DNA of 11,602 nucleotides from an uncultured archaeon. Its GTDB lineage: Archaea; Asgardarchaeota; Hermodarchaeia; Hermodarchaeales; Hermodarchaeaceae. This document shows, piece by piece, positions 6,997 to 8,405 of this stretch. The stretch is from NCBI GenBank assembly GCA_964347045.1, contig CAYFXC010000012.1:31819-43420 (forward strand), in the 5' to 3' direction. Positions within the stretch are counted from its first letter, which is position 1. Each line of letters opens with the position of its first letter. The translations under genes and the position numbers were made by a program. The notes under the pieces are model-generated. The model made no database searches. It was not told the origin of the DNA and worked only from the letters and a program-made list of their open reading frames with translations.

Positions 6997-7060
6997 AACC
7001 ACCAAGAGGTAGTTTAGCGGAACAAATAGACATAGTAAAAAATAAAGAAAGGAACGAGAA
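6997..7060 (-). terminator. U-tract and small hairpin after the acidic micropeptide (convergent intergenic region)
   Basis: Minus strand TTCCTTTCTTTATTTTTT after the TAA at 7066, then AACTACC-TCTT-GGTGGTT (7014-6997; 7-bp stem with one G-U pair on the minus strand). Confidence 0.5.
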
Positions 7061-7065
7061 GGCTG

Positions 7066-7149
7066 TTACCAGTCCTCCTCGTCCTCATCCTTGTATTCTT
7101 CTTCCCATTCTTCCTCGTCATTTTCTGGTGGATATTTAGGAGGTAACAT
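7066..7149 (-). CDS. 27-aa Pro-rich/Trp-acidic micropeptide
   Basis: MLPPKYPPENDEEEWEEEYKDEDEEDW*, with 14 Asp/Glu and 2 Lys. Strong archaeal SD GAGGTGA (7161-7155) 5 nt before the ATG, and a U-rich terminator after the stop. Confidence 0.75.
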   Translation of the reverse strand: MLPPKYPPENDEEEWEEEYKDEDEEDW

Positions 7150-7277
7150 GTTTTTCACCTCATTTGATTCGTCATGACGTTGTTCGACAGCTAACCAGTC
7201 AACCTCCACCCATCCAGAGTTACTTACGTACCATTCTTGTTCTTTGAGTATAGGTCTAGTCTGTTTGGGAAAGTTCT

Positions 7278-7315
7278 CACTGGAAAAAATTCACTTCTTT
7301 GGTTTTTTTCCAGTG
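7278..7315. other. Perfect 12-bp inverted repeat (RNA hairpin) with the UGA stop of the basic micropeptide in its loop
   Basis: CACTGGAAAAAA (7278-7289) and TTTTTTCCAGTG (7304-7315). The 14-nt loop 7290-7303 contains the stop codon at 7293-7291. Confidence 0.8.
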
Positions 7316-7356
7316 GAGGTCTTGGTCTTTTTCTTTGAAGATTTCTTTTTAGCCAT
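7291..7356 (-). CDS. 21-aa Lys-rich basic micropeptide
   Basis: MAKKKSSKKKTKTSTGKKPKK*, with 11 Lys and no acidic residue. ATG-GCT start, with GTGAT (7365-7361, the 3' part of the archaeal SD consensus) 4 nt before the ATG. Confidence 0.65.
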   Translation of the reverse strand: MAKKKSSKKKTKTSTGKKPKK

Positions 7357-7441
7357 GAGAATCACAGCAATTGATGCCTGTGGTCAGTTCTAAATCAAAA
7401 TTTTTTGAGAATGAAAAAGGATAATAAAAGGCAGAAGAACC

Positions 7442-7557
7442 AAATTGAGCTTTTATATTCCTCTTTTTTTAAAATAAACATCTTGTTCCATTTAAACTAA
7501 AAATTTGGGAATTAATGGTCAGTTTCAAAGAAAAAGAGGAGATTATAAGCTGAATTT
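7442..7557. repeat. Imperfect 29-bp inverted repeat bounding a 116-bp segment
   Basis: 7442-7470 AAATTGAGCTTTTATATTCCTCTTTTTTT versus the reverse complement of 7529-7557 AAATTCAGCTTATAATCTCCTCTTTTTCT: 23/29 identical. Confidence 0.6.
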
Positions 7558-8405
7558 CAAGTGTCACAAATTTTTAGCTGTTGATGGACCCTAGTTATTG
7601 CCAATGCAACACGACTCGCGATTTTGGTATAATCCATACCAAATTCATTTCTAAAAAATTGTGTAACTTTTCTAAGTAATTTTAATTGTAATTGTAATCG
7701 CAATAAAGCCATCTTATATGATTGTGATTGATTGTGTTTTGTTTGGGAGTTTTTTATTTCCAGATAAATAGAACGACATTTATCAACAATTCGTTGTGCT
7801 CTTTTTTCGATATTTGATTGAATCAATTGAGAGATAATCTCATCGGCGTTTGCCCCTAAGAGCTCAAGCCGAGGAGCATACCATACCCTAGCACCTAATT
7901 CAATAATTCGTGAAAGAAATTCACTTGGACGAATCAAAGATGTAGAATAGAGGCGAATACGTTTCGTTCGAATCTGAGGAAGCAGTATTACCCCAGATCT
8001 AATTCGAATCATAGGCGTACGTTGAACTAGGCGCGATAGTGCTCTACGTTGAAGAGCATTCTTTACAGGATCATATAGAACTATAATGTACCGCCTTGGA
8101 TTTGTAACAAATGAATTGGATGTATTTCTTGTGATTTTTGTAATATCGCGACGAGGAACGAAAGTAAGAAGATTTGAATTGTGAAAAATATGAGTATATT
8201 TTTCGAATTTCTTTTGTTTAATTTTTGCAAATACTCCAGGTCGTAAACAGATAACATTAGATTGCGTGGTAGGGGATTTCTTTTCAATTTTCTTAGCAAT
8301 AAATAGCTTGGAAAACCCCCTTAGGAGTATTGCGCCCTTTGGTCTTAGCTCCACTAGGTGCTCAGTATTTGAGTAAATCACACCATCCTTCGGGATTGAT
8401 GTCAT
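7557..8405 (-). CDS. Highly basic protein with a ChrB N-terminal / PaaX-like (Cas2-like fold plus helical bundle) domain; possible nucleic-acid-binding regulator
   Basis: 282 aa. RYIIVLYD....ALQRRALSRLV....IRIRSGVILLP, then EFLSRIIELGARV and long amphipathic helices, follows the ChrB-N/PaaX-middle pattern. The CDS is confident; the family call is tentative. Confidence 0.7.
   Translation of the reverse strand: MTSIPKDGVIYSNTEHLVELRPKGAILLRGFSKLFIAKKIEKKSPTTQSNVICLRPGVFAKIKQKKFEKYTHIFHNSNLLTFVPRRDITKITRNTSNSFVTNPRRYIIVLYDPVKNALQRRALSRLVQRTPMIRIRSGVILLPQIRTKRIRLYSTSLIRPSEFLSRIIELGARVWYAPRLELLGANADEIISQLIQSNIEKRAQRIVDKCRSIYLEIKNSQTKHNQSQSYKMALLRLQLQLKLLRKVTQFFRNEFGMDYTKIASRVALAITRVHQQLKICDT

Follow-up and report, generated by a model that had tools for sequence, protein, structure and literature searches.

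Two micropeptide genes of opposite charge and the structured spacer between them in one family of Asgard archaea

The locus and its orthologs

On the minus strand of the window—by which we mean the whole stretch of 11,602 nt that was analysed—two short ORFs follow one another as a micro-operon, and all window coordinates given below refer to that strand. ORF1 (7291..7356; ATG at 7356, TGA at 7293-7291) encodes a basic, Lys-rich micropeptide of 21 aa, and ORF2 (7066..7149; ATG at 7149, TAA at 7068-7066) an acidic one of 27 aa with the C-terminal end ...DEEDW. The two ATGs lie 207 nt apart and in frame, and the linker of 47 codons, or 141 nt, that separates the ORFs contains no stop in that frame. 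The TGA of ORF1 is located in the loop of a hairpin, hereafter H1, whose 12-bp stem, 14-nt loop, and run of six U residues had been pointed out, along with the two ORFs and the open linker, in a preliminary description of this DNA; all these features are indeed present, on the minus strand. The stretch 7045-7460 recurred with 0 differences in an independent Logan assembly of a public run, which run is probably the source sample.

Some 33 nt upstream of the ORF1 ATG we found a promoter-like motif of the TATA/BRE type, TTTTGATTTAGAAC (7387..7400), which motif occupies the same distance from ORF1 in every genus-1 locus and, to judge from its sequence, is the presumptive promoter of the micro-operon. 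Just 5' of this motif, at 7400-7425, lies a T-rich/A-rich dyad (TTTTTC-N6-8-AAAAA or GAAA) that is also present at the corresponding place in L005, L012, and L013, and that could be an operator of the micro-operon. The ortholog comparison further delimited a Shine-Dalgarno-like GTGAT ahead of ORF1 (7361..7365)—either GTGAT or GGTGA being found 4-5 nt before the ATG in every locus with an intact ORF1—and the Shine-Dalgarno sequence GAGGTGA of the acidic ORF (7155..7161), hereafter SD2.

The comparison comprised 19 distinct loci, the window included. The 18 orthologs, which came from the two genera of one Hermodarchaeota-type family and from metagenome contigs, were obtained from 13 other genus-1 genomes, from two of the four genus-2 genomes, and from three further distinct metagenome contigs; the GTDB order of the host contains 19 genomes, in one family and two genera. 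The gene order was fixed, with a UPF0182 gene, the gene for a 282-aa protein, and the micro-operon in succession, and with a convergent 181-aa gene plus a DUF362 gene. Because the flanking 282-aa protein is just 34-58% identical between loci, these ortholog comparisons are deep ones. ORF1 was intact in 16 of the 19 loci, the start having been lost in L006, L008, and L077; among the orthologs the basic ORF measured 21-27 aa, and the acidic ORF, starting with either ATG or TTG, 25-38 aa. The gene of the 282-aa protein (7557-8405, minus strand) lies directly upstream of the micro-operon and is always linked to it, genus 2 included, while evolving fast; a functional link of that protein to the micropeptides is possible.

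The search of Pfam returned no family for the translation of the linker plus the acidic ORF, nor for the 282-aa and 181-aa neighbour proteins. An HMM of the acidic peptide, run over 400 genomes of the phylum, recovered the locus in genus 1 only, and missed the known genus-2 copies as well. In L056-L061, which belong to genomes of another family of the phylum (f6), proteins of 265-347 aa matched positions 4-15 of the acidic profile weakly, through a segment resembling Y-P-P-E-D-D-E-E-E-W, which matches may represent chance low-complexity similarity. A simple scan of the genome for paralogous pairs of Lys-rich and acidic micro-ORFs found none; another Lys-rich ORF of 24 codons with a TGA stop is present on the plus strand at G000:C9:22470, for which ORF the same kind of scan gave no acidic partner.

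The stop codon and the linker

For the UGA that interrupts an otherwise open 96-codon frame, the preliminary description had proposed three competing explanations: a programmed readthrough, a translation-coupled attenuation, and a recent nonsense mutation within one gene. Judged by the description's own criterion, both the first and the last of these are refuted by the orthologous linkers, which carry stops and frame-breaking indels, as well as by the variable relation between the frames: the offset from ORF1 to ORF2 was 0 in three loci, 1 in seven, and 2 in six. Nor did the UGA itself prove to be conserved, since the stop of ORF1 is TAA in nine loci, TAG in four, and TGA in only three (the window, L005, and L074), with the bases that follow varying too. 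The position of that stop, after ...K-K, is the same in 16 of 16 intact loci and across two genera, none of those orthologs having a sense codon there. The readthrough frame met with one to five stops in 14 of the 19 linkers and was open in the other five, versus 1.85 expected; among all 19 loci, the open readthrough frame is that of the acidic ORF in the window only. In L074, the nearest relative of the window, the linker is interrupted by five stops when read in the readthrough frame, and by a TGA when read in the frame of the acidic ORF. An open run of this kind had been roughly estimated to arise by chance in a few percent of cases, which estimate was borne out by dinucleotide shuffles of the linker, 3.5% of which were free of stops in the frame in question.

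The two micro-ORFs, for their part, bear the marks of coding sequences. The acidic ORF is preceded in 19 of 19 loci by its own Shine-Dalgarno sequence (AGGTGA, GGAGG, or GAGTTGA), 5-9 nt before the ATG or TTG. In independent pairs of loci the differences at the first, second, and third codon positions were, for example, 2/3/11, 1/1/7, and 1/2/9 in the acidic ORF and 0/1/8 and 1/0/5 in the basic one; such a third-position bias, along with indels in multiples of three only, characterized both. The linker tolerates indels of 1-2 nt, and in five independent close pairs displayed no codon periodicity (4/5/4, 3/2/0, 5/6/6, 6/7/6, and 6/5/6). A third ORF within the linker was considered and rejected, there being an ATG in L012 only and no conservation of the frames. 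The ENA metagenome protein P0001 (67 aa) is a gene call that has its probable start at a GTG within the spacer and continues through ORF2, and, judged by the orthologs, is probably an over-extended call of a 25-aa acidic peptide.

Purifying selection at the level of codons, for which the preliminary description had proposed to examine the linker, was thus not in evidence in those five pairs; one lineage differed. When the window was compared with L003, L004, and L005, the 3' two-thirds of the linker exhibited a codon-like pattern, with 7/2/15 differences by codon position and a dN/dS of 0.15-0.35 in the acidic frame as against at least 0.6 in the other frames, whereas the first 15 linker codons exhibited no coding pattern. 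It is also through this region that P0001 was called. Against the translation of that stretch stand the lack of a conserved start codon and of any other independent pair with a codon-like pattern; L005, moreover, is frameshifted ahead of the acidic ATG. The codon-like stretch coincides with both arms of a second hairpin, H2, from whose region the amino-acid-like conservation of the linker stems, and we read the pattern—though it is unexplained—as a coincidence on a single branch, superimposed upon a constraint at the RNA level. We have little doubt that the two micropeptide genes are separate and that the UGA between them is an ordinary stop; the 96-codon open frame is an accident of the window genome, in which the spacer happens to be 3n nucleotides long and without stops in frame.

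Throughout the genome TGA is a regular stop, closing 336 of 1351 long frames; continuation in frame beyond it is not overrepresented. The neighbouring 282-aa gene also ends in TGA. A reassignment of TGA to Trp, at which a change from TGG to TGA in L074 had hinted, was rejected on the grounds of that genome-wide stop usage. Stop recoding occurs in some Asgard lineages, and selenocysteine insertion in lineages other than the present one (PMC9723677). In the present genome, which is 89% complete, the best candidate for a tRNA-Sec scored 31 bits versus a cut-off of 47 bits, and SepSecS was not found; with TAA or TAG in the orthologs in addition, a selenoprotein with a SECIS element was likewise rejected.

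RNA structure in the spacer and at the operon end

Hairpin H1 (7271..7323) consists in the window of a perfect core of 12 bp, formed by the 5' arm CACTGGAAAAAA (7315-7304) and the 3' arm TTTTTTCCAGTG (7289-7278), plus outer pairs; the 14-nt loop includes the TGA, and the 3' arm starts with a T6 run that begins 1 nt after the stop and is base-paired inside H1. The predicted energy was -16.5 kcal/mol, corresponding to z = -2.72 with respect to dinucleotide shuffles, of which 2 in 200 folded as well. This 2.58-Mb genome contains only 11 perfect hairpins with a stem of 12 bp or more and a 3-20 nt loop, versus 1-3 in shuffled genomes. Over the 19 loci the z value against dinucleotide shuffles was negative in 18 and averaged about -2.4, the modest values being those of L003 (-1.0), L010 (-0.9), and L039 (+0.5). 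The geometry was more regular still: in the minimum-energy folds of 19 of 19 loci, 17-31 predicted pairs enclose the ORF1 stop and the 3' arm sets in between -1 and +5 nt after that stop, while in all 16 loci with ORF1 the final codons of that ORF make up the 5' arm. The apical loop, at whose 3' edge the stop is found, ranges in size from 4 to 23 nt among loci.

The arms differ from locus to locus—CACUGGAAAAAA/UUUUUUCCAGUG in the window, AUCCAAGAA/UUCUUGGAU in L007, CAGCAAA/UUUGCUG in L010, and AAGCCC/GGGCUU in genus 2—and yet pair with each other. When arms were swapped between loci, the cognate combinations reached -18.4 kcal/mol versus -12.8 kcal/mol for the non-cognate ones (permutation p < 5e-5). 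With the sequence-only MAFFT alignment and a structure taken from one relative, pairing was found in 58% of cells, versus 54 +/- 1.6 in shuffles and 37-48% in slid controls, and the covariation amounted to 0.230 versus 0.181 in shuffles, 5 of 500 of which reached that value; the covariation also exceeded that of the slide controls. Compensatory changes, by which the preliminary description had proposed to judge the stem, are thus in evidence, both in the advantage of the cognate arms and in a covariation above the shuffles. From a MAFFT alignment that spanned the entire spacer, RNAalifold returned no consensus structure, owing to a misalignment of the 3' arms; the support for the structure comes instead from the folding of each sequence, the arm-swap test, and the counts for named structures. 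By eye, no convincing K-turn, C/D box, or H/ACA box was recognized in H1 or H2.

The U-rich character of the 3' arm is explained by its partner strand, which consists of Lys codons. Within that arm the T-run varies: it reaches at least 4 in 11 of the 19 loci and only 2-3 in the other eight, T6 being present in the window and in L074, while runs of at least 5 were found, among the 16 intact loci, only in the window, L074, and L012, and in addition in the ORF1-less L006. The three loci without the start of ORF1 retain H1 in its most stable forms (-29 kcal/mol in L006, -32 kcal/mol in L008), together with H2 and ORF2, which persistence indicates that H1 is independent of ORF1 translation and, the acidic ORF and its structured leader being intact there, that the acidic peptide can occur in the absence of the basic one. 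In this clade (L006:1670-1762, L008:1673-1765, and L077, the last from a metagenome), the start and the 5' half of ORF1 have been lost, and the promoter-like motif, here TTTAGATTTGCAAC, now adjoins H1.

The spacer, of about 140 nt, contains at least two hairpins with covariation, H1 being the first. Its length is conserved, at 134-148 nt throughout genus 1 and at 107-110 nt in the genus-2 loci, and its elements follow in the order H1, H2, a GTCGAAC motif, and SD2. Hairpin H2 (7202..7255), about 40 nt downstream of H1, received stronger support than H1 did: in the sequence-only alignment A4, pairing was found in 67.4% of cells versus 58.9 +/- 1.8 in shuffles, the covariation of 0.326 versus 0.218 was reached by none of 500 shuffles (0/500), and both sides had changed in 12 of 19 pairs. 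The window itself has a weak H2 (z +0.73), of which the outer stem alone (7255-7245 paired with 7212-7202) is well kept. The single-stranded motif GTCGAAC (7182..7188), in the 3' part of the spacer, is kept in most genus-1 loci irrespective of the reading frame. A search of Rfam 15 at a permissive E-value yielded nothing better than matches of 11-22 bits (E > 1), and the families matched were without exception eukaryotic and unrelated.

The operon ends in a third hairpin (7037..7086 inclusive of its T-run), recognized by folding and by compensatory changes, in which about 16 bp are formed within 7086-7049 and a T-run follows at 7046-7037. Its 5' arm is the last six codons of the acidic ORF, whose Trp codon and TAA lie in a CUG-GUAA-CAG apex, that is, in a GUAA tetraloop of the GNRA type closed by CUG/CAG; directly after the apex comes the 3' arm, and then T5-T8. 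The energy amounted to -20 to -23 kcal/mol in 14 of 16 genus-1 loci, with weaker values listed for L039 (-13.3), L009 (-14.8), and L063 (-8.6); L007, L011, and L009 contain compensatory changes. The operon-end sequence TGGTAACAGCCTTCTC hardly varies within genus 1, even though the identity of the neighbouring proteins is no more than about 35-58%. Apart from L012 and L063, the genus-1 loci possess T5-T8 within about 25 nt past the acidic stop, as is expected of a terminator with four or more U residues, so that, from its sequence, the operon-end T-run qualifies as a candidate archaeal intrinsic U-tract terminator. Hence the stop codon of both cistrons sits in a hairpin loop.

From the combined folding, arm-swap, and covariation results we consider it very likely that H1 is a selected, conserved RNA structure. 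The idea that a functional hairpin accompanies a constrained linker has accordingly survived in an altered form: the constraint does exist, but is one of RNA structure and not of codons.

Interpretation and comparison with known systems

The explanation that we regard as probable, albeit with some reserve, is that of a small two-gene operon with a plain stop and a cis-acting mRNA structure, H1. In it the two cistrons are translated independently into the Lys-rich 21-aa and the acidic 27-aa peptides, with the UGA acting simply as a termination codon; for cistron 1, H1 would provide a structure of the 3'-end type, and H1 and H2 jointly would form one at the 5' side of cistron 2. In such an arrangement H1 could block exonucleases, or else act as a weak point of internal termination or processing—the weak termination possibly applying in the lineage of the window and L074, with their T6—and the amounts of the two oppositely charged peptides would then be set separately at the level of the mRNA. 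That H1 is of the 3'-end type is suggested by cistron 2, which likewise stops in a hairpin loop followed by a T-run, and H1 has what distinguishes an intercistronic 3'-end stem-loop, namely a stable hairpin at the end of the upstream cistron that is conserved as a structure. A role of H1 in stability or in 3'-end formation specifically is, nevertheless, a more tentative proposition. Termination in archaea depends on U-tracts and not on hairpins, so that a terminator role for H1 would be unexpected from the hairpin alone (PMC8716108), and the U-tract of H1, in not being conserved, also counts against that role.

Among the alternatives, those that would make a single gene of the locus are the least probable. 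That a recent nonsense mutation split one 96-aa gene has hardly any likelihood: only the in-frame arrangement of the window genome speaks in its favor, while the invariant place of the stop after ...K-K in two genera, the lack of an ortholog with a sense codon there, and the differing frames all oppose it. Scarcely more credible, in our judgement, is a programmed recoding confined to a subclade, by UGA readthrough in the window and L005 and by a +1 shift at AAA-TAA-C in L003 and L004, which events would generate a basic-linker-acidic fusion. This possibility could appeal to the codon-like 3' two-thirds of the linker, to the excess of open readthrough frames, and to the recoding of stops in some Asgard lineages (PMC9723677); but close relatives would need different mechanisms, the first 15 linker codons lack a coding pattern, the open frame matches the acidic one in the window only, L074 has stops in frame, L005 has a frameshift ahead of the acidic ATG, the genome yielded no Sec machinery, and the stop lies inside the hairpin, unlike the known stimulators, which are 3' of the stop (PMC3159437). 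At the other extreme, H1 might be a functionless by-product of purine-rich Lys codons that meet a pyrimidine-rich spacer by chance. The Lys codons do dictate the composition of the arms in part, and the z values of L003, L010, and L039 are modest; yet shuffles that preserve the dinucleotide composition fold worse in 18 of 19 loci, cognate arms outpair non-cognate ones, the stop is in the loop in 19 of 19 loci, and the hairpin survives, in its strongest form, where ORF1 is lost, all of which makes a by-product improbable.

Two regulatory alternatives deserve more weight, each being unlikely without being implausible. In the one, which corresponds to the attenuation of the preliminary description, a ribosome on the Lys-rich ORF would melt H1 and expose its U-rich 3' arm, so that termination or processing by aCPSF1 at the U-tract would hinge on ORF1 translation and set the acidic:basic ratio. 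This proposal withstood the comparison of orthologs because the stem is conserved and its arms covary; the constant placement of the 5' arm in the last ORF1 codons and of the stop in the loop are in keeping with it, as are the U-rich 3' arm and the T-runs of at least 4 in 11 of the 19 loci. In Methanococcus one U4 tract has a median termination efficacy of about 43%, and aCPSF1, including a Lokiarchaeal one, which behaves alike, binds single-stranded U-tracts (PMC8716108), both of which properties would suit such a switch. The T-runs are, however, just 2-3 long in 8 of the 19 loci, H1 persists in the three loci that lack the leader ORF, a conserved alternative helix was not observed, and by thermodynamic prediction the accessibility of SD2 and the AUG stays the same when a ribosome footprint is masked; ORF1, moreover, evolves as a conserved peptide and not as a mere run of sensor codons. 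In the other alternative, H1, H2, and GTCGAAC would act upon the acidic ORF as a translational operator or as a leader that binds a protein, possibly subject to feedback by the basic peptide or an RNA-binding protein. The conserved spacer length with its two covarying hairpins, the conservation of GTCGAAC regardless of frame, and the retention of the leader where ORF1 is lost would all fit, whereas the lack of a match to known RNA families in Rfam 15, and an SD2 that, by prediction, is roughly half open in the majority of loci and not systematically sequestered, argue to the contrary.

Returning to the two-gene operon, this Asgard locus, conspicuous as a possible case of recoding, is thereby explained without readthrough, selenocysteine insertion, or gene decay at the UGA, and a hitherto unannotated micro-operon emerges in one archaeal family, with a covarying structured spacer RNA that is absent from Rfam. 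Gene-calling programs overlook the two peptides or else, as in the case of P0001, predict a longer, spurious ORF that extends across the spacer. To our knowledge, almost nothing has been established experimentally about post-transcriptional control in Asgard archaea; if the hairpins do control the ratio or the lifetime of the messages, the locus would offer a compact model for such control. Should attenuation prove true instead, the closest prokaryotic relatives of eukaryotes would possess a ribosome-sensed switch that couples or uncouples the two peptides co-transcriptionally.

Regarding known systems, the structures that stimulate readthrough—the MuLV pseudoknot and the stem-loops of alphaviruses and of Drosophila hdc—lie wholly 3' of the stop, behind a spacer of 7-12 nt, and resemble the present locus in the conserved stem of about 12 bp near a UGA and, in the window genome, in the open frame beyond (PMC3159437). 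In those systems the downstream frame is conserved as coding, whereas here the stop is in the hairpin, its type varies, and the frame is broken in relatives; furthermore, with the 5' arm of H1 upstream of the stop, a terminating ribosome would have already melted H1, which is the wrong geometry for a readthrough stimulator. In selenocysteine insertion, the bacterial SECIS is a hairpin that follows the UGA and the archaeal one is located in the 3'-UTR. A UGA by a stable hairpin, in a phylum with Sec recoding, is reminiscent of that system (PMC9723677). Unlike with SECIS elements, however, the UGA here is in the loop, not upstream of the hairpin, and the orthologs have TAA or TAG.

In the leader-peptide attenuators of trp, his, and pyrBI, the 3' end of a short ORF pairs with a U-rich strand upstream of a gene, and here, too, a short ORF overlaps a hairpin strand with a U-rich partner ahead of another gene; but the present locus showed no antiterminator pairing, its U-tract lacks conservation, H1 is kept without ORF1, and the leader is a conserved peptide. 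As to the U-tract terminators of archaea, which act with aCPSF1/FttA and usually without a hairpin (PMC8716108, PMC7515710, PMC2253867), the T6 after the ORF1 stop in the window and the canonical-looking T-runs at the operon end are similar; unlike those terminators, the internal T-run is paired within H1 and shorter than 4 in 8 of 19 loci, and strong hairpins are present at both cistron ends. Lacking defining features of each, H1 falls outside the classes of readthrough elements, SECIS elements, and classical attenuators.

Intercistronic stem-loops, such as those of the Rhodobacter capsulatus puf operon and the REP sequences of E. coli malEFG, confer differing stabilities on the segments of a polycistronic mRNA. 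H1 shares with those hairpins the stable stem placed directly where the upstream cistron of a small operon ends and a structure more conserved than its sequence, and, like them, plausibly sets unequal amounts of co-transcribed products; it departs from them in the stop within the apical loop, the coding 5' arm, and the Asgard host. By analogy, then, H1 would work most like the intercistronic stem-loops of bacterial operons, and the element adds a new, family-restricted case to a type of cis-acting mRNA structure that is already known; what is unusual in it, and consistent, is the placement of the stop codon in a hairpin loop at both cistrons.
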